IMG/VR virus record: IMGVR_UViG_3300023223_000669
Location: 32,001-96,000 of that record
Direction: 5' to 3' (one strand)
Source: a virus
Length of the DNA stretch: 64,000 bases
This document shows, piece after piece, positions 1 through 50,760 of this stretch (positions are counted from its first letter, which is position 1; the number at the start of each line of letters is the position of its first letter). The notes beneath the pieces were generated by a model. It did no database searches, was not told the DNA's origin, and worked only from the letters and a program-made list of their open reading frames with translations. A program made the position numbers and the translations under genes.

Positions 1-47
1 TTTATAATCGATGTCATGTAGTGTATTATTATGTGGAGGACTATCTT

Positions 48-629
48 ATGAAGATTGAGCTACTCAAATGCAAGAACCCAAATATCTGCAAACACTGTGG
101 GTCGGAATTTCCTAACTGGATTCTAGTCGATGGCGTCAGAAAGAATCTCTCGACTAGAAGCTATTGTCTAGGCTGTAAGCCTTACAGTAGTGGCAACACT
201 AAAAGACTCTCACGATACCGCGAAATCAATGGTCACGAACAGAAACTTTGTTCTGTTTGTCAAAAATGGAAAGATGTAGAATATGCATGGTATAAAGTCA
301 CGAGGGGTGACAAAGTATATACCAACTCACATTGTAAGGATTGCACTAATGCTCGCTCTCGGTGTCTTGCTGCTGATCTTAAGAGAAAAGCCGTCAATTA
401 CAAAGGCGAAAAATGTTATGATTGTGGTGAGTTGTTTCCTGATTACATTTACGACTTTCATCATCGTGACCCGTCTGCTAAAGACTTCAAAGTATCAAAT
501 CACCTAACACGAAACATGGACTGGCAAAAAGTAAAAGATGAACTGGATAAATGCGATATGCTTTGTTCCAACTGCCATAGGCACCGCCATTACGATAAGG
601 ATAATCCTAACTACTGTCCGACTCGCTAG
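48..629 (+). CDS. HNH endonuclease with N-terminal Zn-finger motifs
   Basis: CxxC pairs, DFHHRDP...ELDKCDMLCSNCHRHRH; ATG at 48 follows GGAGGA. Confidence 0.8.
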   Translation: MKIELLKCKNPNICKHCGSEFPNWILVDGVRKNLSTRSYCLGCKPYSSGNTKRLSRYREINGHEQKLCSVCQKWKDVEYAWYKVTRGDKVYTNSHCKDCTNARSRCLAADLKRKAVNYKGEKCYDCGELFPDYIYDFHHRDPSAKDFKVSNHLTRNMDWQKVKDELDKCDMLCSNCHRHRHYDKDNPNYCPTR

Positions 630-1642: not shown

Positions 1643-1686
1643 TACGGTTACAGTATACCGTCGTTTCGAGGATTGTCAAGTAAAAG

Positions 1687-2816: not shown

Positions 2817-2844
2817 AGTATACCGCCGTTAGGGCCTAAGTCAA
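2817..2844 (-). promoter_or_regulatory. sigma70-type promoter
   Basis: TTGACT-16bp-TATACT; ATG 8 nt downstream (2808). Confidence 0.8.
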
Positions 2845-2858
2845 GCTCAAAATCATCG

Positions 2859-3092
2859 CTATTTCATCAGATTACCACTAAAGATATGGTGGTCTGGATG
2901 CTGTTTCGAGAATTCGCGAGCCTCGGGGTAAGACTGGAAATCGTGAATGCAGAGTGTTCCACCAGGCCCAAGATGGGCTACCCAATACACTTTTGTTGCC
3001 AGAAGCTCACCTATGACCGCAAGCTGGTCCTGATGCTCAAGAGCAAGGATTTCGCGAGCAAGCTGTACGTGTTTGGGTTTACGTAGTACCAT
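2859..3092 (-). CDS. hypothetical protein (junction array)
   Basis: ATG supplied by GGAGCTTGAAAATG motif. Confidence 0.6.
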   Translation of the reverse strand: MVLRKPKHVQLAREILALEHQDQLAVIGELLATKVYWVAHLGPGGTLCIHDFQSYPEAREFSKQHPDHHIFSGNLMK

Positions 3093-3228
3093 TTTCAAGC
3101 TCCAACCGTTGTTTTAGCAGAGCCAGGAGAACTTCAACGTCATAAGATTGTGATGGACCTGAAAAACTTGTATTGACCTCCAAAACAAGAGGAAGACCCG
3201 CAATCAGGACTGATGTTGTCACCTTCAT
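3079..3228 (-). CDS. hypothetical protein (junction array), ends ELENGTT
   Basis: 49 aa MKVTTSVLIAG... translated by hand. Confidence 0.5.
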   Translation of the reverse strand: MKVTTSVLIAGLPLVLEVNTSFSGPSQSYDVEVLLALLKQRLELENGTT

Positions 3229-3234
3229 TATGTT

Positions 3235-3423
3235 CTACTTCTTTTCAAGCTCTCTTCCAAGAGCCACAGTACCAATCATAGCAAGCCTGAGAATCTCTTC
3301 CCAAGTAGCAAGGTCTGTACTGGCATCTGCAAGATGCTCGACCAATTGGATGCGTTCGGAGGTACTACGGCAGGCCGCATATTCTAGGACGATATGACGT
3401 GCGTTTTCTTGCCATCTATTCAT
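3235..3423 (-). CDS. hypothetical protein (junction array), ends ELEKK
   Basis: MNRWQENARHI start provided by the motif. Confidence 0.6.
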   Translation of the reverse strand: MNRWQENARHIVLEYAACRSTSERIQLVEHLADASTDLATWEEILRLAMIGTVALGRELEKK

Positions 3424-3583
3424 TTTCAAGCTCCTCCTCCGGTAATACCACTAATTCTAGATGCAACTCTTCCTCGGAGAGAGAAAGAAAACCCTCCATG
3501 AGAGCAGTAACTTGATTGTCACTTGCCCAATAGGCCATGACCCAGATATGCTTGATCTGTTTGGTGGTAAGTTCCACTTTCAT
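3416..3583 (-). CDS. hypothetical protein (junction array), ends ELENE
   Basis: 55 aa MKVELTTKQ..., ATG 8 nt after -10. Confidence 0.55.
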   Translation of the reverse strand: MKVELTTKQIKHIWVMAYWASDNQVTALMEGFLSLSEEELHLELVVLPEEELENE

Positions 3584-3591
3584 GATGCCAC

Positions 3592-3619
3592 AGTATACCC
3601 TCGTTAGCGGCTAAGTCAA
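3592..3619 (-). promoter_or_regulatory. sigma70-type promoter overlapping upstream stop codon
   Basis: TTGACT-16bp-TATACT. Confidence 0.8.
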
Positions 3620-3964
3620 GTCCTTTTCAAGCTCCCCATTGATCCCACGTAGCAATTGAAGGGTCTCGTTAGCAATCGACATGAGGCCGCTGATCTTGGC
3701 AGGATCGGCACCACGGCGGATAAGCTCATCGCAAACCACATGCAGACTGATTAGATTGATGGCTGAGCATAAATCATAATTGCGTTTACGAAAGCGATCG
3801 TTGCGTGCAAAGGAATCGTCTTTTTCAAGCTCACTGACAGCAAAATCCCTAATAGGATAAGGATGAGTCATAAGACATACAGCGAATGCTCCGTTGGGAT
3901 AGATGGTGACGATTGTGCCGCGTTCGCCGGTTGCTTTAACTCTAATCATGTCGTGTTCTTTCAT
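3611..3964 (-). CDS. hypothetical protein (junction array); SH3-like N half; internal ELEKD and terminal ELEKDLT
   Basis: KEHDMIRV...GERGTIVTIY; two motif copies in frame. Confidence 0.65.
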   Translation of the reverse strand: MKEHDMIRVKATGERGTIVTIYPNGAFAVCLMTHPYPIRDFAVSELEKDDSFARNDRFRKRNYDLCSAINLISLHVVCDELIRRGADPAKISGLMSIANETLQLLRGINGELEKDLT

Positions 3965-3967
3965 TAG

Positions 3968-4168
3968 TTATAAACTAGCTCCTGCGGCGTCTTGAGCGTT
4001 TTCAAGCCCTTCGTCGTCCCTACCGCGACTATAAGCCCAATCCATTTTCTGAATGACTAGATCAACGAGTTCGTCCCAGAATTCGGATGGCATCTTGCTG
4101 TAAATGTGACCGAGGGCGTTCGTGGCCTTGAGTTCGGTCTCTACAATCTCTCGCATTGAGTGCATCAT
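3968..4168 (-). CDS. hypothetical protein (junction array)
   Basis: ATG 6 nt after -10; GLEN motif near C terminus. Confidence 0.6.
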   Translation of the reverse strand: MMHSMREIVETELKATNALGHIYSKMPSEFWDELVDLVIQKMDWAYSRGRDDEGLENAQDAAGASL

Positions 4169-4174
4169 GGTGTC

Positions 4175-4202
4175 ATTATATCCTCGTTAGAGCCTAAGTC
4201 AA
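4175..4202 (-). promoter_or_regulatory. sigma70-type promoter overlapping upstream stop codon
   Basis: TTGACT-16bp-TATAAT. Confidence 0.8.
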
Positions 4203-4367
4203 GTCCTTTTCAAGCGAACGTCCCAAGTATTCCATAAGAGACAACATACTCTCTCTAGAAAGCAAAACCTTGACGCCGGGGACATCCTCGAAGGACTTGG
4301 TACACAGGCTGATGCCTCCGTCGCGAGGGTCACGTTGGACAGATAAGTAGCGGTTGATTTCCATCAT
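4194..4367 (-). CDS. hypothetical protein (junction array), ends SLEKDLT; paralog of 4374-4637
   Basis: 57 aa MMEINRYLSVQRDPRDGG...LSLMEYLG translated by hand. Confidence 0.6.
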   Translation of the reverse strand: MMEINRYLSVQRDPRDGGISLCTKSFEDVPGVKVLLSRESMLSLMEYLGRSLEKDLT

Positions 4368-4373
4368 TATGAT

Positions 4374-4637
4374 CTAATCCTTTTCAAGCTCTTTAGGGAA
4401 GCGAATAGAGGTCCAAAAACTGTTGTGATGTATTACTTGGACTCCTGTATCCTCCATTTCAAGCAATTGTCCTAAAAACTCCATAAGAGACAAAGCATTA
4501 TCTTTGGACAAGGAAAGACTGGGGCCATCGCCTGTGCTGGTCTTCACGGTAAGTATTATACGACCATCAGTAGGATCGTATGTTGCTAAAAGATCACCAT
4601 TGGTGATGCTACGTGCATTTTGTTGCCATTGATCCAT
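4374..4637 (-). CDS. hypothetical protein (junction array), ends ELEKD
   Basis: YDPTDGRI...LSLMEFLG. Confidence 0.65.
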   Translation of the reverse strand: MDQWQQNARSITNGDLLATYDPTDGRIILTVKTSTGDGPSLSLSKDNALSLMEFLGQLLEMEDTGVQVIHHNSFWTSIRFPKELEKD

Positions 4638-4643
4638 TAGAGT

Positions 4644-4820
4644 CTAATCCTTTTCAAGCACACGCCTAGCAAAACACTTACTACCCCTACAAGGAACATT
4701 ACGACGATCCTTATGAGAGAACATGCGAGGGAGCCCGTAGCCACCTTGGCTCCAATAGGCTTTAAGCGTACGGTCACAGTATGAGCATTGTGCCAGTGTA
4801 TAGGATTTAGTCTGTGTCAT
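4644..4820 (-). CDS. small Cys/His protein (junction array), ends VLEKD
   Basis: MTQTKSY...CSYC...H...C..S..C. Confidence 0.55.
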   Translation of the reverse strand: MTQTKSYTLAQCSYCDRTLKAYWSQGGYGLPRMFSHKDRRNVPCRGSKCFARRVLEKD

Positions 4821-5103
4821 TTTTAAGATTAGTTTTACAGAAGGCCCAAGAGGATCCGTCGCGTTGATTATGAGAGATCTTAATGTCCCAACCAGCAGCC
4901 TCAAAAGCCTCCTTGAGCATCATGACTACCTTTTGGTGCTTGGGTGGAGCACTTATATAAACGGGATTTAAGCGACCAGTATACCATTCTTTTTGAAGTA
5001 CAGCGTTGATCTTTTCTGTATACTTTTTATACTCTGCCTCAATTGTAGCATTTTGTAGCTTGGCGGCTTCCTCGGGTGTTATAGGTTTTATATTCTCATT
5101 CAT
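4807..5103 (-). CDS. hypothetical protein
   Basis: MNENIKPITPEEA...AFEAAGWDI; ATG 6 nt after -10. Confidence 0.7.
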   Translation of the reverse strand: MNENIKPITPEEAAKLQNATIEAEYKKYTEKINAVLQKEWYTGRLNPVYISAPPKHQKVVMMLKEAFEAAGWDIKISHNQRDGSSWAFCKTNLKNDTD

Positions 5104-5109
5104 GGTCTT

Positions 5110-5137
5110 ATTATACCACCATTAGAGTCTAAGTCAA
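5110..5137 (-). promoter_or_regulatory. sigma70-type promoter overlapping upstream stop codon
   Basis: TTGACT-16bp-TATAAT. Confidence 0.8.
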
Positions 5138-5344
5138 GTCCTTTTCAAGCTCCTCTCCAAGTGATACCAAAACAATACCAGATGAATGGAAGAAAGAACC
5201 GTGTGAGTGAATGAGACAATACATGAAGCACCATTGGTTGAGGGATGGATCATACCATAGCTCTGCGTGTATTAGCTCATAATAGGCTGTATCCACGTTG
5301 CTCCGCGTCTCCTGGGTGTAAGATATAGGTAACGGCGTACACAC
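5129..5344 (-). CDS. hypothetical protein (junction array), ends ELEKDLT
   Basis: ORF; start uncertain. Confidence 0.5.
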   Translation of the reverse strand: MCTPLPISYTQETRSNVDTAYYELIHAELWYDPSLNQWCFMYCLIHSHGSFFHSSGIVLVSLGEELEKDLT

Positions 5345-6087: not shown

Positions 6088-6164
6088 CGCAGGGTGGAGC
6101 AGCAAGGCAGCTCGTCAGCTTCATAAGCTGAAGGTCGTGGGTTCGAATCCCACTCCTGCTACCA
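6088..6164 (+). tRNA. tRNA-Met(CAT), initiator-like
   Basis: full cloverleaf, CAT anticodon, TTCGAAT T-loop, encoded CCA, C1:T72 mismatch, A11:T24. Confidence 0.95.
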
Positions 6165-7268: not shown

Positions 7269-8324
7269 ATGACGATTCAAGGTTATTTCAATGCTCGCCT
7301 GGAAGGCGACACCCGCCCCAAGGGCATGTTCGCTGGTATCGAAGGGGAGACCTCCGAAGATATCATCGAGAGCATCCAGGACTTCCTGGTAGCTGCTGGG
7401 CGGAACTACGGCATCCTCCGGGTGCCTGCCTATGTCAACGATCCGTTCGGTGGGGTGGATGATGATGGGAAAGTCGTTCCCGCTCTCCGCGAGGTCGAGA
7501 ATCAATTTCACCTCGCCCGCACGAACGACGGGCACATCGTTTCACCGCATACGGTCACCGCACAGTATGCCCCGATGACCCTGATGGATGTCGCGACCGA
7601 GGTGCAGCCGTTTTGTGATAACGGTTGGGCTACCCCCGATGCCGTCTATGATGGCAAGAATGGTAGCGTTGAGCTTCTTTCGCTTCGCCTTGATGCTGGC
7701 GGTAGGCTTCCCAACGGGGAACTATGGTCGCATCATATCGTGTTCCGTCTCCCGCATGGTAGCGGCGGGAAAATCAAGGGCACGATCATGAGCCACCGCA
7801 ACACTTGCTCTAACGTGTTTAGTGCAATTGGACGGGGCTTCGAACTCGTGGTCACGCACCGTTGTTCCGCCAAGATGACGGAAGATGAGCGTCAAGCCAT
7901 CATGTCCGAACGGGCACAAGCCGCCATCTCTGCATGGGCTCAAGTCCAGGACTACCTCGATACCCTTTCCAAGCGTATCGAAACGTGGTCCGCACAAGCC
8001 GTCTCCTTCGCTCAGGCGGAGGGACTGACGGACAAGCTGCTGGGTATCACCGATCTCGATAAGGCCAGCACGCGGAAGAAGAACGTCCGAGAGGCCATCC
8101 TCTCCGGGTTCTCCATGCCGCAGTATGGCACGTTCGGGGCGACTGTGTACGATTGGATGAACGCCGTGACGTTTATCAACTCCAGCCCGAATTCGGCCAT
8201 GGTGAAGAAGTCCAAGGTTTCGGCCGTGGACCGTCTCATCCGCATCATCGACCCGAACGGCTCAGGCTACAAGCTTGAGGCAAAGGCCGAGAAAATCGCT
8301 GCCGCGTTCGTAAGCAACGCCTAA
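7269..8324 (+). CDS. DUF932/TIGR03299-like protein
   Basis: 351 aa; VTAQYAPMT..., HGSGGKI...RNTCSN, ..THR, TVYDWMNAVT pattern typical of the family; own promoter at about 7206-7233. Confidence 0.7.
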   Translation: MTIQGYFNARLEGDTRPKGMFAGIEGETSEDIIESIQDFLVAAGRNYGILRVPAYVNDPFGGVDDDGKVVPALREVENQFHLARTNDGHIVSPHTVTAQYAPMTLMDVATEVQPFCDNGWATPDAVYDGKNGSVELLSLRLDAGGRLPNGELWSHHIVFRLPHGSGGKIKGTIMSHRNTCSNVFSAIGRGFELVVTHRCSAKMTEDERQAIMSERAQAAISAWAQVQDYLDTLSKRIETWSAQAVSFAQAEGLTDKLLGITDLDKASTRKKNVREAILSGFSMPQYGTFGATVYDWMNAVTFINSSPNSAMVKKSKVSAVDRLIRIIDPNGSGYKLEAKAEKIAAAFVSNA

Positions 8325-8330
8325 TCAAAC

Positions 8331-8372
8331 CCTCAAGGGGCCGCTTGACAAAGCGGCCCCTTGAGGTATACT
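8331..8372 (+). promoter_or_regulatory. palindromic promoter cassette 1
   Basis: CCTCAAGGGGCCGCTT-GACA-AAGCGGCCCCTTGAGG then TATACT; TTGACA at the apex. Confidence 0.85.
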
Positions 8373-8378
8373 CTGTCA

Positions 8379-8597
8379 ATGGCAAGACACACTATCGGTT
8401 TCAAACGTGGTTCCGTCCGGGGTGCTCCGCCAGATGTGTACATCGGATTCGGGACCTACGCTAACGAGAATGACAGAGAACCCTGGGCAGACGCTTTCAA
8501 GCTCTGCAAGCATTACGGCATCATCGCCCTAGGTTTGGTTCTCCTGTTCTTTGTCGGTTCCGTTCTTTGGGTTCTCGGATGGATACCCGACGACTAA
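8379..8597 (+). CDS. small membrane protein
   Basis: C-terminal TM helix; ATG 6 nt after -10. Confidence 0.6.
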   Translation: MARHTIGFKRGSVRGAPPDVYIGFGTYANENDREPWADAFKLCKHYGIIALGLVLLFFVGSVLWVLGWIPDD

Positions 8598-8605
8598 ACA
8601 TAAAT

Positions 8606-8646
8606 CCAAGGGGCCGCTTGACAAAGCGGCCCCTTGGTGTTATACT
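8606..8646 (+). promoter_or_regulatory. palindromic promoter cassette 2
   Basis: CCAAGGGGCCGCTT-GACA-AAGCGGCCCCTTGG, TATACT. Confidence 0.85.
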
Positions 8647-8654
8647 GTAGCATC

Positions 8655-8837
8655 ATGGATAAAGAAACAACAATCTTCGCGACCATCGGGGTCTTCGTCC
8701 TCGTGATCCTGACCGCCCTATGCACATGGGGTCTCACCCGTGACACAATGCGGACCGACGCCATGGCCCACGGTGCGGGTCATTGGGTCATCGTGGACAG
8801 TGACAATGCTTTCGTTTGGGGACCGGCCCCAGAATAG
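8655..8837 (+). CDS. small membrane protein
   Basis: N-terminal TM helix. Confidence 0.6.
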   Translation: MDKETTIFATIGVFVLVILTALCTWGLTRDTMRTDAMAHGAGHWVIVDSDNAFVWGPAPE

Positions 8838-8964
8838 CTACAAGTTTTTCAAGACCCCTTAACGTATATCATACGTGACCGCCCCTGCCGATATGGCCTG
8901 CCATATCGGCAGGAATATGTTTCCTGCCAATTTGGCCGAGTACACGCTGCTCCTCAACACTACC

Positions 8965-8993
8965 ATTATACCGCCCCGAAGGGCGGTAGTCAA
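8965..8993 (-). promoter_or_regulatory. leftward promoter into non-coding tract
   Basis: TTGACT-17-TATAAT with CCGCCC-TTCG-GGGCGG hairpin in spacer. Confidence 0.75.
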
Positions 8994-9161
8994 GCTAGAA
9001 AACACAAACCATACAAACTAAGTGCTCGATGTCGTGTAAAATGGGCCGCTCAAGGGGGCTGGGATGCCGCGTGCTGGCATATCTCGACCCGCCCGCGTAC
9101 CCATAGCACGCAGAGCGTGCGAAAGCCCGGGAGGGACGAGGAGAGGGCGGGTCGAGCGATT
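8988..9161. repeat. ~173-bp non-coding element, copy 1
   Basis: collinear blocks shared with 13542-13713 at offset 4552. Confidence 0.85.
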
Positions 9162-9206
9162 TCAATTTAGAGCTTGCATTCTCCCGATTGTGGGGTATGA
9201 TAGGGC

Positions 9207-9431
9207 ATGAAGCAAGAAGATAACAATCCGTTCCGCCCCGTGGCTCCCCGCCCCGGTGATGCCCTGTTTGGGGGTCGCCGTGAGGCTATCGCTGCCTCTC
9301 GCTGCATGCCCGCCCCTGTCGGGTGCGGCGGATCCGTTTCGGTTCAAGGGTTCCGCGACGATCTCTCCCGGAAAGAATTTCGCATCTCTGGTCTTTGCCA
9401 GGCATGTCAGGATTCTGTTTTCGGAACATGA
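9207..9431 (+). CDS. small Cys-containing hypothetical protein
   Basis: C...C...CQACQD; promoter TTGCAT-16-TATGAT at 9174-9201. Confidence 0.65.
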   Translation: MKQEDNNPFRPVAPRPGDALFGGRREAIAASRCMPAPVGCGGSVSVQGFRDDLSRKEFRISGLCQACQDSVFGT

Positions 9432-9877
9432 AATCGCATAAGTTTTGGAAAAAGGCTTCCATCCCGGATCAATGCTGGGAATGGCAAGGTGGGAAATCTG
9501 TTCCTGGTGGATATGGAAAGACAACCCGGAAAAATAGGACAGAATATGCCCATAGAGTAGCCTGGGAATTATTTCACGGCGAGAAAATTCCCGACGATCT
9601 TTGTGTTTTACATAAGTGTGACAATACAGCATGTGTAAATCCTTTCCACCTATTTCTAGGAACGAAGGGAGAAAATAATACCGATCGGGCAAACAAAGGC
9701 CGTAATGGCAATGTAAGAGGTGAAGCCCACGGTAATGCAAAACTTTCTGCTAAACAAGTCGAGCAGATTAGAAAACTTTACACAACGAAAAATTATTCTC
9801 ATAGTGATCTAGCAGAAATGTTTTCGGTTTGTGCGGCTACAATCGGAAAAATTTGTAGACAAGAAAGATGGAAATAA
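9428..9877 (+). CDS. HNH endonuclease (HNH_3 type, C-terminal HTH)
   Basis: CWEWQG...AHRVAWE...VLHKCDNTACVNPFHL...GTKGENNTD. Confidence 0.9.
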   Translation: MKSHKFWKKASIPDQCWEWQGGKSVPGGYGKTTRKNRTEYAHRVAWELFHGEKIPDDLCVLHKCDNTACVNPFHLFLGTKGENNTDRANKGRNGNVRGEAHGNAKLSAKQVEQIRKLYTTKNYSHSDLAEMFSVCAATIGKICRQERWK

Positions 9878-9935
9878 TCCTTGCCCAAAAGTCGATTTCC
9901 CTTGCTTTCCGCCCGTAGGATAGTATACTGCTGTC

Positions 9936-10100
9936 ATGGATGAAAAGCTGTTTGAGCGTTTCGAGGAAGCCGTCCAAGAGTATTTCGACCACGGCACGGC
10001 AGCGGGCCTTGCAGCCAAGAAAACCCTTCGCGAAGAGGTGGGCGACGAAATAATGGTAGAGCTTGCCGACGAGTATCGAAAACGTAAGGGAATGAAATGA
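9936..10100 (+). CDS. hypothetical protein
   Basis: 54 aa MDEKLFERF..., promoter TTGCTT-16-TATACT directly upstream. Confidence 0.6.
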   Translation: MDEKLFERFEEAVQEYFDHGTAAGLAAKKTLREEVGDEIMVELADEYRKRKGMK

Positions 10101-10417
10101 CAGAATACCCCGAAAGTCAGATAGGCTGGATCCGCGAGCGTCCTGCTCGTGCCCTGAAAATCTATTTCAAGGGTAGCCGATCGTCTGCCATTACGGAGAT
10201 GTGCATTGGATGCATTGGCTCCGCTCAAGAGGCTAAGAAATGCGAATGTCTTGATTGCCCCTTGTGGCTGTTCCGTCCAGGGGCAATCAAGGGGCAGGTA
10301 CCGGAGCACGTCCCTTCGTCGGACGAGCTTGCAAAGCTCGCCGACGAGAAGGTATCGCCCGCCGTGCGGGAGCACGCACGGAGGCTAGGCGAGTCGAGGA
10401 AAAAGGTGACGGAATGA
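10097..10417 (+). CDS. hypothetical Cys-rich protein
   Basis: CIGC...CECLDCPLW. Confidence 0.65.
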   Translation: MTEYPESQIGWIRERPARALKIYFKGSRSSAITEMCIGCIGSAQEAKKCECLDCPLWLFRPGAIKGQVPEHVPSSDELAKLADEKVSPAVREHARRLGESRKKVTE

Positions 10418-10740
10418 AATTCGAAGAAGCATTAGCTATCGTTTTTTGTCTAGCCCAACAGAATCAACTCGAAAACGACGTTATCGAGGATGATCCGGTT
10501 TTGCTGAAAGAATATGAACGCCAGACAGAAGCTATTGAGATTGTGAGTGATTTTGCTCATAACGTAGACCTTTCCGAATTCGACGCGGACGACGAACCGA
10601 CGGGGCGGCCCGTTGTTGTGACGTGTCATTCATGCGGGGAGGTACTTGATTCGCATGATGAAGGTGAAGATCAAACATGCGGCGGTTGCGGTTCTTGTGA
10701 CGTGACGGTGGATGCCAATGGACCACCTATCGGCTCGTGA
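10414..10740 (+). CDS. hypothetical protein with C-terminal Zn ribbon
   Basis: CHSC...CGGCGSC. Confidence 0.6.
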   Translation: MKFEEALAIVFCLAQQNQLENDVIEDDPVLLKEYERQTEAIEIVSDFAHNVDLSEFDADDEPTGRPVVVTCHSCGEVLDSHDEGEDQTCGGCGSCDVTVDANGPPIGS

Positions 10741-10795
10741 AACTTCTCCTTTTTCTCCTTGCTTATTGTCATACGTGGGGTATAATCCTGATACT

Positions 10796-10963
10796 ATGGA
10801 TAAGGAGAACAAAGGGATGATACAAGTAGAAATCACCGAAGAGGATGCTGTAGAGCTTCGCTGGATCATACGATCCAGGGGCGGCAGCGGACTACGTAGC
10901 AAACTCAAAACCGCCTTATTCGGTCTCAAGCCTGAATGGGCTGAGGAATTCGAGGAAGAATAA
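10796..10963 (+). CDS. hypothetical protein
   Basis: promoter TTGCTT-16-TATAAT upstream. Confidence 0.55.
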   Translation: MDKENKGMIQVEITEEDAVELRWIIRSRGGSGLRSKLKTALFGLKPEWAEEFEEE

Positions 10964-10966
10964 GAC

Positions 10967-11293
10967 ATGGAAATCATTACCGAACAAGTCGCGGGTCGCA
11001 TGATCCGCCAGGAAAGTGGCGGCAGGCTCTTTGGCGTTACCTTCCGCAAGGCGGACGGCAACGTCCGTAGGCTCGTCGGCCGTCGCGGCGTGCAACTCGG
11101 CGTCAAGGGCACCGGCAACCCCGAGCCCGTTGGTATCGTCCGGGTTCACGAGTTCGTCACGCGAGCCGAAACGGTCCGCGACGGCAAGGGCCTCTACGCG
11201 GGTGACGGCAACGCCACCACGCAATGGCGGAGCTTCCGGCTCGATCGGCTGGAGAAACTCCGCATGGGCGGAAAAGAGTACCAGGTCGCTTAG
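10967..11293 (+). CDS. Sm-like/SH3 (WYL_2/DUF2693-like) protein
   Basis: FGVTFRKADGNVRRLVG...WRSFRLDRL. Confidence 0.6.
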   Translation: MEIITEQVAGRMIRQESGGRLFGVTFRKADGNVRRLVGRRGVQLGVKGTGNPEPVGIVRVHEFVTRAETVRDGKGLYAGDGNATTQWRSFRLDRLEKLRMGGKEYQVA

Positions 11294-11310
11294 CCTTCGG
11301 CTAAAGAAAA

Positions 11311-11351
11311 CCCAAGGGGCCGCTTGACATGGCGGCCCCTTGGGGTATACT
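11311..11351 (+). promoter_or_regulatory. palindromic promoter cassette 3
   Basis: CCCAAGGGGCCGC-TTGACATG-GCGGCCCCTTGGG, TATACT. Confidence 0.85.
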
Positions 11352-11357
11352 ACTAAC

Positions 11358-11588
11358 ATGAAATTAGAATTCGACAGTATAGAGGAAGTCAAAGCATTCG
11401 TGGTCAACCTTGGTGGCGTGAATACCGCTACCTTCAAGCATCCCGGCGACGTAGCTCTCACGCTTGCCAAACTTGCGAATGAGGGCATGCGTGGTGGTAA
11501 AATTCAGGCTATCAAAATCTTTCGAGCTGTCACTGGACATGATCTCAAAGCATCAAAGGTAGCGATCGATAATGTTTGGGATTATTAG
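11358..11588 (+). CDS. ribosomal protein L7/L12 C-terminal-domain-like protein
   Basis: GKIQAIKIFRAVTGHDLKASKVAID. Confidence 0.75.
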   Translation: MKLEFDSIEEVKAFVVNLGGVNTATFKHPGDVALTLAKLANEGMRGGKIQAIKIFRAVTGHDLKASKVAIDNVWDY

Positions 11589-11622
11589 CTTGCTTCCTAG
11601 TATAGCCGTGCTATACTAGGGT

Positions 11623-11769
11623 ATGAACGAGCAAAACGAAATCCGTGGCGACGAGCGTGAAGACGCTTTCGAGAATGCCCCCGAGCAGTCCGAGCTTACC
11701 GAGAAGGAGCTTGACGAGCAGGAGGCCATGCAGAATCCCGGCGGGGATCCTTGGCGACTGGAGTGGTAA
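11623..11769 (+). CDS. small highly acidic protein
   Basis: 48 aa MNEQNEIRGDEREDAFE...; promoter at 11590-11617. Confidence 0.5.
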   Translation: MNEQNEIRGDEREDAFENAPEQSELTEKELDEQEAMQNPGGDPWRLEW

Positions 11770-11923
11770 TGATGGACCACGGTCCTGCTGTCCGTAAGCC
11801 CAAGATGGTCATAACCGTTTTATGCTTATGGGTAATCCTCGTTTTCGGGCTTGACATCTTGAAAGCATGGGGTATACTCTAGTGGTTCGAATGATCGAGC
11901 AGAGTCAAGTAGGAGACTGAGCC

Positions 11924-12130
11924 ATGAAAGAGAAAGACACGAAGGCCTGGAGGGAAGTTAGCCGTATGCAACGAGAAGCCGCAAAAGAGACAAAAGGTGA
12001 ACTGGTGGCATCGTGCAGGCTGCACGAGAAAACTATCGTTGCTCTGATCGAAGAGAACAAGTGCCTACGGCTAAAGCTTTCTCAAGCTGAGAAACACCTA
12101 GCTAACCTTGGTGCTACCAAGGAGGACTGA
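11924..12130 (+). CDS. coiled-coil hypothetical protein
   Basis: AGGAG RBS; heptad pattern. Confidence 0.6.
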   Translation: MKEKDTKAWREVSRMQREAAKETKGELVASCRLHEKTIVALIEENKCLRLKLSQAEKHLANLGATKED

Positions 12131-12180
12131 GCCACGAGTGTAAACCATATGCTCCTTGAGCGGAGCGAAGGGACGAAGCA

Positions 12181-12375
12181 ATGAAAATCCGCACCATTTC
12201 GAGCAACGACAAAAAAGGCACGGCTATGATCGTGCTAGTGCAGCCCGATCCCAATAACAAGGGACGGGATATGAGCGAAACTCGCCACCTCAAGGGGAAA
12301 GGCGATTTCTGGACGGACAACGACGGAAACGTGTTCACCCGCAACGGTGCTAGCTTCACGCTGAGGGGCGAGTAA
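12181..12375 (+). CDS. hypothetical protein
   Basis: ORF in rightward run. Confidence 0.55.
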   Translation: MKIRTISSNDKKGTAMIVLVQPDPNNKGRDMSETRHLKGKGDFWTDNDGNVFTRNGASFTLRGE

Positions 12376-12626
12376 TGCTAACCAGCAAGGAAGCAAAACG
12401 CAAGGCGGCGGTTATAGCGGTCCGTTGTCGTGTCATCGCCGACATTGCCGTAGCCGTAGGGAGCGAAGCGGTCAAGCTGCCCGAGGGCCACCCTAACAAG
12501 AAGCAAGTCCGCATGTGCCTTGAAACACTCAAGAAAATCGTGGATAAAGCGACCGAAGAGGCCATGCTTTACCTGGCCTTTGCGGACGAGGTGCCCGAGC
12601 AAGTCTTGAGAGATCGCCTCAAGTAA
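12375..12626 (+). CDS. hypothetical protein
   Basis: TAATG coupling. Confidence 0.6.
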   Translation: MLTSKEAKRKAAVIAVRCRVIADIAVAVGSEAVKLPEGHPNKKQVRMCLETLKKIVDKATEEAMLYLAFADEVPEQVLRDRLK

Positions 12627-12631
12627 TCACA

Positions 12632-12674
12632 ATCGGGGGAAGTCGCTTGACTTCCCCCGATGATGTGGTACTAT
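12632..12674 (+). promoter_or_regulatory. palindromic promoter cassette 4 (different arm sequence)
   Basis: ATCGGGGGAAGTC-GCTT-GACTTCCCCCGAT; TTGACT-16-TACTAT. Confidence 0.75.
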
Positions 12675-12679
12675 ACAGC

Positions 12680-12871
12680 ATGGAAGCACAGCACACATGC
12701 CGTTTCTGTGACGCCCCTGTGACGGATCCCCTAGCAATCGAACGAGCAGAGCGTATTGCTCGCAACGTCAATGCAAGGGGCAACCATGTCACGGGGCAGC
12801 CCTGGATTACGCCGGTACGCCCCGCCTATTTCTGCTCCCCTGAGTGCGTATACGCCAAGTATATAGGCTGA
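12680..12871 (+). CDS. small Zn-finger-like protein
   Basis: CRFC...FCSPEC. Confidence 0.6.
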   Translation: MEAQHTCRFCDAPVTDPLAIERAERIARNVNARGNHVTGQPWITPVRPAYFCSPECVYAKYIG

Positions 12872-13038
12872 TGGAACGCGGACGCCGAGTAAGGCATTAC
12901 GCCATGGGGCACGAGCAAACGCCTTCGGGTGATAGCCTGGAGGTGCTGGGTAAGCTAGCCAAGGCGATCCTTTGGATCGCCTTGGTGTTTTTACCCTTAG
13001 TTTTTCTTGACTTCGTGTGCGGACGGGGTACACTGTAA
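12871..13038 (+). CDS. small membrane protein
   Basis: C-terminal TM helix. Confidence 0.5.
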   Translation: MERGRRVRHYAMGHEQTPSGDSLEVLGKLAKAILWIALVFLPLVFLDFVCGRGTL

Positions 13039-13040
13039 TC

Positions 13041-13319
13041 ATGCAAGCAATCGAAATACATTCCCTTTTTCAAGCGGACGAAGCATACCGCGAATTGGGA
13101 GCAACGCATTACCACGACTCACACTATCCCGGCAGTCGCCGTATGTGCGATTGGGGTTGGAGAGAGGGCGGCCTATTCTCCCGCCACTATTTCAACGCCG
13201 AAGGAACCGAGATTGGCTTAGTTATTCCCGACTTCTTCCCTCTGGACATGGGGGTCCAAATATTCGATAAGCCCCGCGTGTGGGGAATCGAGCACGACCT
13301 ACACCCGCTGACTGTATAG
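13041..13319 (+). CDS. hypothetical protein
   Basis: ORF in rightward run. Confidence 0.6.
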   Translation: MQAIEIHSLFQADEAYRELGATHYHDSHYPGSRRMCDWGWREGGLFSRHYFNAEGTEIGLVIPDFFPLDMGVQIFDKPRVWGIEHDLHPLTV

Positions 13320-13519
13320 CGGCCGGGCGTAGCACTTGGGAACATAGTTCCCAAAAATCGTACAAGGTACACAATAACGCTTTTAATACACTACTTTTAC
13401 CCATTTCCCGATTGTAACGGTTGGGTAGCCTGTCGCAGTTTTACATAACTTTTACATTCCCGGATCTGCCAAAATGGCAGTCTGTCCTGCCAAAATGGCG
13501 GTTACGAACTGGACGCTAA

Positions 13520-13547
13520 ATTATACCCTGTTTTACGCCTATGTCAA
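13520..13547 (-). promoter_or_regulatory. leftward promoter into non-coding tract
   Basis: TTGACA-16-TATAAT. Confidence 0.8.
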
Positions 13548-13713
13548 GTAGCAACACAAACTTTACAAACCAGATGCTCGGTCCCGTGTAAAATGGCCCG
13601 CTCAAGGCACCTCAATTGCCTCGTGTTAGCATATCTCGACCCCACCGCGTAGGGCTTGCACGCGGAGCGTGCGAAGGGCTGGCACGAGCGAGGAGAGAGC
13701 GTCTGGAGCGATT
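13542..13713. repeat. ~173-bp non-coding element, copy 2
   Basis: see 8988-9161. Confidence 0.85.
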
Positions 13714-13777
13714 GTTCGAGAATTGTAAGTCTCACATTTGGTTGTTGCTTCTCCCCCATTTTACGGTATTGTTCCTT

Positions 13778-13963
13778 ATGAGAAACGCAAACGGGATGAC
13801 GCGGGAAGAAAATACCGCCCGCCGCATGGTCATCGTGACGGTGCTGAAAAAACTTCGCACCGTGGTCCGGGAAGGCAATTCCGCCTACGAAAGAATGGCA
13901 CAGAACATTCTGACCAGGGAAAATGATGCTGCCGATGCCTTGATTCGGGAAGCCCTTTCCTAG
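13778..13963 (+). CDS. hypothetical protein
   Basis: promoter TTGCTT-16-TATTGT at 13745-13772. Confidence 0.55.
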   Translation: MRNANGMTREENTARRMVIVTVLKKLRTVVREGNSAYERMAQNILTRENDAADALIREALS

Positions 13964-14116
13964 CAAGGGAAATCGAATTTCCCCCTCATGTTTAGCACCC
14001 CGGATGCCGATAGTATACAGTAGGAAGGAAACGAACATGAGACTAAGAAATAAAATCCTGGCCCTCGCTTTCGCCGTTTCACCCTTTGCTTACATGGCTG
14101 TTAGGGTGATGACGAT

Positions 14117-25629: not shown

Positions 25630-26190
25630 TTACATGCCGCCTTTGCCTCCAGGATGAGGTCTATCAGTAGTGTATTTGAACTCTGCGAAGAATCGTTCGA
25701 TATAGGTTTGCTTAATTCGTTCATAAATGGCCTCGGCATTTAACTCGGGCGTATCAGCACTAGCCGCTCTAATCTGACGAGCAAGCTCTGATAGAGTAGC
25801 ATTCAAATCAGTAAGTTGATGTGCAATACGAACAGCAATTTGTTGGGCTGTAGCCCTGCTCGTCAGATGAAGTAATTCCTGTAGCTTGTCTTTGAGTTCC
25901 GGCATAAAGTTTGCCACAAGACGCTGTTGGGCATCATACGCCTTGCGTTTCATGACAATCTCTTTCGGCTCATCTGCCATGATAAAATCGCCGCCATGCT
26001 CCGTGGGGCGGTTGTATACATCGTTTGCTTTTAGTGGCGAATCCGCTTCAACCATTATACCCGTATATGTCATTGTCGCCGGTTTGAATCCATTGATAGC
26101 AAACCCTGCCGCGTCCTCAGAAGCAACATAAGCATAAGTTCGATTCTCGGGAGTATTTCCCATCACGGCATATACAAAGTATTTAGTCAT
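25630..26190 (-). CDS. hypothetical protein
   Basis: ORF between deaminase and macrodomain; start approximate. Confidence 0.6.
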   Translation of the reverse strand: MTKYFVYAVMGNTPENRTYAYVASEDAAGFAINGFKPATMTYTGIMVEADSPLKANDVYNRPTEHGGDFIMADEPKEIVMKRKAYDAQQRLVANFMPELKDKLQELLHLTSRATAQQIAVRIAHQLTDLNATLSELARQIRAASADTPELNAEAIYERIKQTYIERFFAEFKYTTDRPHPGGKGGM

Positions 26191-29892: not shown

Positions 29893-30145
29893 TAGCATTC
29901 CCCAGGCGAAAGAACAGCCGCCCACAAGGGCGACTTTACAGGCCATTACCAATAGTTATTACGCTAAGTGACTATCTGGAAAAAGCTTGAAAAAGGGAAA
30001 AGCATACATATCGTGTACTACGTATAATATGTCGGCCCTCTGTGGGCCATAGAGCTACGTGGCACCGTGTTGCTTCGCCTCTGTTTGTCTCGTCCTGTAT
30101 GGGACTATTATGACATGATTTCACGACTTCGTATAGCACTTTCCC

Positions 30146-37911: not shown

Positions 37912-37970
37912 GAATCTTAGTGTATTAGATACCTGGAGCAATCAAGCCGCAATATAATCGCCCTGACGTT

Positions 37971-46757: not shown

Positions 46758-46766
46758 TAGTGTATT
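46758..46766 (+). promoter_or_regulatory. candidate late promoter TAGTGTATT (also 19, 37918, 41309, 43270 variant, 50752)
   Basis: recurs at gene junctions in sense orientation. Confidence 0.6.
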
Positions 46767-50739: not shown

Positions 50740-50760
50740 ACGCCTTATATTTAGTGTATT

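Follow-up and report, generated by a model that had tools for sequence, protein, structure and literature searches.

We analysed a 64-kb stretch of phage DNA, hereafter the window, which comprises bases 32001-96000 of a 183.1-kb virus record with direct terminal repeats (IMGVR_UViG_3300023223_000669, here G000). It contains an array of 12 very small genes, all on the minus strand, in which one short sequence with the core GCTTGAAAA recurs at the gene junctions. We consider it probable that the array consists of exchangeable micro-gene cassettes joined by this sequence, which would act as an adaptor, both carrying expression signals and providing the crossover point. Coordinates refer to the window unless a G or L record is named, and three of the records carry two labels (G005 is L028, G007 is L029 and G003 is L030).

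The core is GCTTGAAAA in the sense of transcription and TTTTCAAGC on the plus strand, where ten co-oriented copies lie within 2.06 kb. Across the window TTTTCAAGC occurs 19 times, compared with 0.84 copies expected from dinucleotide-preserving shuffles of the window (n=100), none of which reached 19, and the complete 183.1-kb genome has 24 copies. All ten copies in the array are translated as Leu-Glu-Lys or Leu-Glu-Asn in a single frame, at or near the ends of the back-to-back genes.

The 12 open reading frames (ORFs), A to L, have 45-117 codons and run from 5344 down to 2671. In the direction of transcription, gene A (5129-5344) ends in motif copy 1 (5142-5150) at a promoter-type junction, followed by gene B (4807-5103). 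The junction of B with gene C (4644-4820) carries a variant of the motif-plus-ATG form with one mismatch, G to A (4817-4827), and C ends in copy 2 (4651-4659) at a stop-start junction. Gene D (4374-4637) has a degenerate motif with three A's in its interior (4456-4464), which aligns with the end of its paralogue E, and ends in copy 3 (4381-4389) at a stop-start junction. Gene E (4194-4367) ends in copy 4 (4207-4215) at a promoter-type junction, while in gene F (3968-4168) copy 5 (3999-4007) stands 12 codons ahead of the stop. Gene G (3611-3964), which encodes 117 amino acids, reads through copy 6 (3822-3830) and ends in copy 7 (3624-3632) at a promoter-type junction. Gene H (3416-3583) ends in copy 8 (3423-3431), the last A of which begins the ATG of gene I (3235-3423); I ends in copy 9 (3242-3250) at a stop-start junction; and gene J (3079-3228) ends in copy 10 (3092-3100), the last A of which begins the ATG of gene K (2859-3092). 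Between K and gene L (2671-2808) a truncated motif is fused to the -35 box of the fourth promoter (2836-2848), which looks like the result of an 11-bp deletion between two CTTGA repeats.

A reading made from the sequence alone (the sequence-only reading) had already listed the ten intact copies, and its start positions match exactly on the plus strand; the C-termini that it gave for consecutive ORFs were also correct when we read them again. It had not mentioned that copy 6 is internal to its gene or that copy 5 stands 12 codons ahead of a stop, and it had not included the three degenerate copies, those of gene D, the B/C junction and the fourth promoter. When these three are counted, every junction in the array holds the motif or a derivative of it, and the motif is absent from the seven junctions of the conserved genes directly downstream.

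By codon usage, trained on the long ORFs of this phage and scored with stop codons excluded, the annotated frame was the best of six for 12/12 genes, and public gene calls were identical to 8/10 of the array ORFs that we looked up. All eight array proteins present in a collection of 15 billion proteins are singletons there, and an exact-sequence look-up found array proteins encoded on no other contig. No Pfam families were found among the array proteins, matches to PHROG were weak and limited to genes B and G, and a homology search with the C-terminal part of gene G returned only itself. The proteins are of several kinds, including a Cys-rich protein resembling a Zn ribbon, membrane peptides and charged helical peptides. 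Together the 12 orphan genes make up a hyperplastic early region.

The junctions fall into a small number of designs. A repeat search grouped them into promoter-type families of 43-51 nt (4 and 3 copies) and a stop-start family of 32 nt (4 copies). The three junction variants described in the sequence-only reading are real, and its pair at 4644 and 5129 is identical except for a missing 6-base stretch, which is the -35 hexamer, so that the junction at copy 2 is the first promoter junction without its -35. Near-consensus sigma-70 promoters, matching 10-11 of the 12 consensus positions, occur at 4/12 junctions, with -35 hexamers at 5137, 4202, 3619 and 2844, and the remaining junctions are without a promoter. 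All four are on the minus strand: P1 (5110-5137) consists of TTGACT, 16 nt and TATAAT, with the ATG of gene B 6 nt past the -10; P2 lies at 4175-4202 and P3 at 3592-3619; and P4 (2817-2844) has the truncated motif joined straight to its -35, the whole unit spanning 2817-2848. The non-promoter junctions are of two kinds, those in which the motif is followed by one codon, a stop, 6-10 nt and an ATG, and those in which the last A of the motif begins the ATG. The earlier proposal that the motif marks cassette boundaries and carries expression signals therefore stands, the signals being either one of the four sigma-70 promoters or a stop followed by a start.

At each of the four promoters the ATG lies only 6-8 nt past the -10, which suggests that the mRNAs are leaderless, and we found no consistent Shine-Dalgarno site at the array starts. 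The same early promoter form, CTTGACT, 15-16 nt and (G)GTATAAT, is also seen at window 1652-1679 and at G000 1948, 8445, 16797 and 37718. In promoters of this form the ATG is again 6-8 nt past the -10, hence many early mRNAs are predicted to be leaderless. Internal genes mostly lack a Shine-Dalgarno site.

At 8/10 array junctions no reading frame stays open from the motif to the following ATG, and at the other 2/10 the frame left open is the next gene's own. Clade-wide, three-frame closure was seen at 17/49 junctions, compared with 2.5% of random segments, where it should be kept in mind that the motif itself provides one stop. The junctions are unstructured: of eight junctions folded, six were less stable than the shuffle mean and none was significantly stable (z from -1.6 to +1.7), there was no Rfam match or conserved structure at the junctions, and no terminator-like sites were found at array junctions. 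The only palindrome there is a 4-bp mini-palindrome, TTAG/CTAA. It has the form TTAG-N3-CTAA directly after the -35 in all four array promoters (2832-2844, 3607-3619, 4190-4202 and 5125-5137), and the TAG within it is the stop codon of the upstream gene. We also noted that TTGACTTAG recurs at the array promoters of G001, G004, G005 and L062.

The shared Glu-Leu-Glu-Lys tail could be a C-terminal tag for sorting, degradation or packaging; the sequence-only reading had listed a sorting or degradation tag among its alternatives. The tail ends 8/12 of the proteins, and similar tails occur in relatives. The codons, however, do not vary. In this genome 23.5% of Leu codons are CTT and 56.6% of Glu codons are GAA, and all ten copies (10/10) read CTT-GAA, for which p = 1.7e-9 if the peptide alone were under selection. 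The G preceding the motif fills the wobble position of Glu, Val, Ser and Gly codons and is kept in all four contexts. On L062, a related metagenome contig, two genes use the other frame and end at the motif's own TGA, and one copy lies after a stop codon; other-frame or post-stop copies, or both, are also seen in G005, G007 and G004, and those genes of L062, G005 and G007 that stop at the TGA are without the peptide. In the array itself, the copy internal to gene G and the one 12 codons before the end of gene F do not fit a terminal tag. Together, the invariant codons, the wobble G and the alternative frames indicate that the conserved unit is DNA or RNA. Conservation is at the level of nucleotides and not of peptide, and on the strength of the invariant codons and the other-frame genes in L062 we reject the tag as scarcely credible.

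To follow the locus in other phages, we identified relatives by their terminase, which matched ten viral records at 59-78% identity. An alignment-based scan gained one further record. An exact 18-mer scan of viral contigs recovered only one unrelated coding sequence, in seven contigs, and a scan with the protein of the neighbouring 351-aa gene alone gave no matches. Among cultured phages the terminase had no relative above 25% identity, and a nucleotide search against them matched only a tRNA. We counted the motif in nine of the related records and compared the full locus in five.

The motif is present in 9/9 records, with 4-35 copies, whereas the reversed word occurs 0-3 times. All five relatives that we studied completely have a cluster of motifs at the syntenic place, bordered by a conserved Zn-ribbon gene on one side and a conserved gene pair (139 and 351 aa) on the other. 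The gene content between these borders is almost wholly different from one relative to another, and the junction core is common to all. At this locus at least eight related records combine the same core with orphan genes almost wholly unlike those of the array. The locus comparison proposed in the sequence-only reading found different ORFs between conserved motifs. Beyond the core, the extended junction is uniform inside a genome and differs between genomes, as in G004, which has its own 28-nt version in four repeats. Junctions that are uniform within genomes and different between them are the pattern expected from exchange among copies.

Several comparisons among the relatives place breakpoints at the motif. 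G005 and L068 are 96% identical over 4 kb, and L068 has a 163-bp unit with a 61-codon ORF that is missing from G005. In L068 a 13-nt stretch that includes the motif stands on each side of this unit in direct orientation, and in G005 there is a single copy of the stretch, joined to the right-hand flank. A second case is an 80-codon gene common to G005/L068 and G007, where identity of 78-83% begins at one motif and stops precisely at the next; beyond these limits identity is at background, and the neighbouring genes differ. It is followed by a promoter-type junction in G005 and by a stop-start junction in G007.

Within the array, genes D, G and K are apparent cassette fusions. G004 has a separate 63-codon gene with a motif on either side, and its product matches the last 57 residues of gene G at 49% identity; the array reads through the motif upstream of this part, so that G would be a fusion. 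The DNA of these two is at background identity, and the homology rests on the protein match. Gene D aligns with its paralogue E up to the copy of the motif that has lost one A, a loss that brings a downstream 27-codon frame into phase, and D is likely an in-frame fusion of two cassettes. Gene K is chimeric, its two parts matching genes separated by 136 kb in G001.

Another possibility is that the array arose by serial tandem duplication of one founding cassette, the bodies having diverged and the promoter-proximal end having been kept by constraint or gene conversion. The copies all in the same frame and the similar unit sizes of 150-270 bp would fit, as would a 56-nt stretch of D and E at 73% identity, an N-terminal motif common to D and I, and a paralogous pair inside the G004 array. 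However, the proteins are of unrelated kinds with no mutual similarity beyond D, E and I, other unrelated genes stand between the same motifs in relatives, cassettes move between contexts, and the other frame is used in L062, G005 and G007. We consider duplication of a single founder to be very unlikely as the origin of the array.

The exchange of cassettes would work as follows. The adaptor gives the upstream gene its last codons (Leu-Glu-Lys/Asn) and then leads into one of two expression modules. The first is a strong sigma-70 promoter with the ATG 6-8 nt past the -10, in which the A-run of the adaptor lies about 40-43 bp upstream of the start point, in the position expected for a proximal UP element. 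The proximal UP subsite of sigma-70 promoters has approximately this position. The second module is a stop codon with the next ATG within 0-10 nt, which may lead to translational coupling, and at these stop-start junctions the adaptor may offer an unstructured, A-rich approach to the ATG. Since almost all junctions, in this phage and its relatives, carry one adaptor in direct orientation, short-homology recombination could delete, insert, re-partner or fuse genes, and genes would stay expressed after recombination between adaptor copies. Exchange could take place within one genome or between co-infecting relatives.

The sequence-only reading had called for a search of the whole genome for a recombinase. 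We found no match to the tyrosine recombinase (PF00589) or serine recombinase (PF00239) families in the complete 183-kb genome, while control genomes were positive. The search did find a RecA-like protein (155 bits), encoded outside the window at G000:110700-111485. Likely agents of exchange would be this phage RecA-like recombinase, annealing or replication slippage.

A number of observations weigh against this picture. The evidence for exchange comes from relatives and not from variants of this genome. Of about eight indels between G005 and L068, one is exactly bounded by the motif, and indels between G005 and G006 are mostly not at the motif. There is an excess of homology ends near motifs among relatives, which is partly circular because repeated junctions match one another, and we use it as support only. 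A homology of 9-13 bp is short for RecA-type exchange. One frame is strongly preferred, roughly 30 to 5 clade-wide, which a pure DNA adaptor does not predict. Finally, the exact conservation of the core despite 59-78% terminase identity suggests direct selection for some function.

Such a function could be regulatory. The motif might be mainly a cis-acting site, either in DNA for a phage or host transcription factor or in RNA for a nuclease or translational repressor, with recombination incidental to it. In keeping with this, the core is better conserved than the cassettes that it bounds. In relatives it has a fixed place within promoter spacers (TTGACA, 2-3 nt, motif, 4-6 nt, -10), shifted by about 21 bp relative to where it stands in this array, upstream of the -35, and a copy has been kept in a diverged intergenic region before structural genes in four genomes. 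Counts of the word in long ORFs also exceed those in synonymous-codon shuffles on both strands (22 vs 5.0 and 26 vs 5.4). On the other hand, the gap between the motif and the following start codon or promoter ranges over 0-36 nt, the motif is missing from many of the clade's promoters, and no conserved structure or Rfam match was detected. Outside arrays there are 74 copies where sub-words predict about 68, and the core of the motif is the commonest 7-mer among a set of similarly common words. No MotA or AsiA homologue was detected, although control genomes were equally silent. On balance we think it unlikely that regulation is the main role of the motif.

We also considered genome-wide selection on the 9-mer and dropped it, given that its excess over codon shuffles is explained by the generally common 7-mer core. 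Promoters with the motif in the spacer are found at G005 17943 and 17847, at G007 18415 and 17836, at G003 15901, and, with a CCTCGAAAC variant, at window 1652-1679. The junction 9-mer before the rightward structural genes is at window 29985-29993 on the plus strand, G001 58629, G005 22170 and G007 17241, and in the window and G001 a hairpin follows it.

A bolder version of the cassette reading is that the core has been selected clade-wide as a universal gene socket. This would be a 9-13-nt adaptor that closes all frames and either restarts translation or boosts the next promoter, and that is perhaps the target of a specific nuclease, annealing protein or binding factor, with orphan genes captured and exchanged far above the rate of chance microhomology. 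We regard this version as quite unlikely.

The closest described systems are found in other phages. In T4-type phages, PeSL elements, which combine a repeated early promoter with a stem-loop, flank orphan genes in hyperplastic regions (PMC2839356, PMC4122927) and mediate indels and mini-circles (PMC2839356). In the array described here, as with PeSL, orphan early genes of a hyperplastic region are flanked by a repeated junction element, the upstream gene stops within A/T-rich sequence that leads into a sigma-70 early promoter, expression signals travel with the gene, and the phage encodes a RecA-type recombinase of its own. The element likewise delimits indels and replacements among close relatives (here in relatives, as a 163-bp indel and two cassettes). 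Other features differ. The core is 9-13 nt, in families of 32-51 nt, whereas PeSL is about 100 bp and ends in a Shine-Dalgarno site and start codon. There is no stem-loop terminator in this array, the element forms part of the upstream coding sequence, with one frame preferred, and a single core may stand immediately before a promoter or immediately before a start codon. Translation starts seem to be leaderless or coupled and not Shine-Dalgarno-led, and this phage clade is unrelated to T4. Elsewhere in the window, promoters at 8994 (genome 40994) and 12646 (genome 44646) have a G/C-rich hairpin placed between or around their -35 and -10. They resemble classical PeSL elements, so this phage would also have the stem-loop type.

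In lambdoid phages, short conserved boundary sequences at gene junctions are used for homologous exchange of unrelated genes, and genes 67 and 68 of mycobacteriophage Island3 share their C-terminal ~50 bp, according to the summary in PMC3029335. These cases resemble ours in having a short conserved gene-end sequence with non-homologous flanking genes and homology breakpoints within it, and the Island3 repeat, as in this array, encodes the C-terminal residues of adjacent genes. Those junctions are isolated ones, while here one core occurs at nearly every junction of a 12-gene array and throughout the clade, and is tied to promoters or start codons. The sequence-only reading had proposed cassette exchange in an undescribed system. 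Gain and loss, re-partnering and fusion at the motif in relatives support the exchange, but the system is a shorter, partly coding variant of the described shuffling by PeSL or short boundary sequences (PMC2839356, PMC4122927, PMC3029335).

Integrons also consist of small, variable, co-oriented genes with a recurring junction element. Unlike integrons, this genome has no tyrosine recombinase, its junctions have no attC-like imperfect inverted repeat that could form a hairpin, and the array has internal promoters and not one common promoter. The array is not an integron-like system.

In T4 middle promoters the MotA box is located about 12 bp upstream of the -10. Where the junction is of the stop-start kind, a -10-like hexamer follows 11-12 bp downstream of the first six bases of the motif, which resemble the core of the MotA box, but this spacing is not kept in the other junction types. 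We set this candidate aside because the start point would fall past the ATG; no MotA or AsiA homologue was found either, though there the control was silent as well.

Early regions of phages are the main reservoir of orphan genes for host takeover and anti-defence, and the turnover of these genes is poorly documented beyond T4-like phages. In an uncultured clade unrelated to T4, the array shows that a core of 9-13 nt, partly within coding sequence and common to promoter and stop-start junctions, can mark the exchange points of single genes. The core is a simple sequence handle for finding such regions and provides a natural test case for the length of homology that phage recombination needs. 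Its compact design, a three-frame stop followed by a restart or a promoter, is also a candidate synthetic gene adaptor.

Apart from the junction motif, the most over-represented 9-mer is TAGTGTATT, which occurs 17 times compared with 1.6 expected; G001 and G007 are enriched in it as well. As the minus-strand word AATACACTA, its sites include 19-27, 25668-25676, 37918-37926, 46758-46766 and 50752-50760, with 12 more in the genome. Several copies have GGAGG about 10 nt and ATG about 25 nt downstream, and TAGTGTATT may be a phage-specific middle or late promoter for Shine-Dalgarno-led genes. In G005, at 8190-13969 and genome-wide, an element is present in at least six copies; it opens with a variant of GCTCGAAAA, and its inverted ends enclose a long A-rich loop. 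An unrelated repeat family is also very abundant in G005, with words that occur 100-320 times. A gene for an HNH endonuclease (PHROG 2255, E = 2e-39) lies 2 kb from the array, at window 21-629 on the plus strand, and is not conserved beside the arrays of relatives. Just past the array, at window 6088-6164 on the plus strand, there is a tRNA-Met gene with the anticodon CAT.

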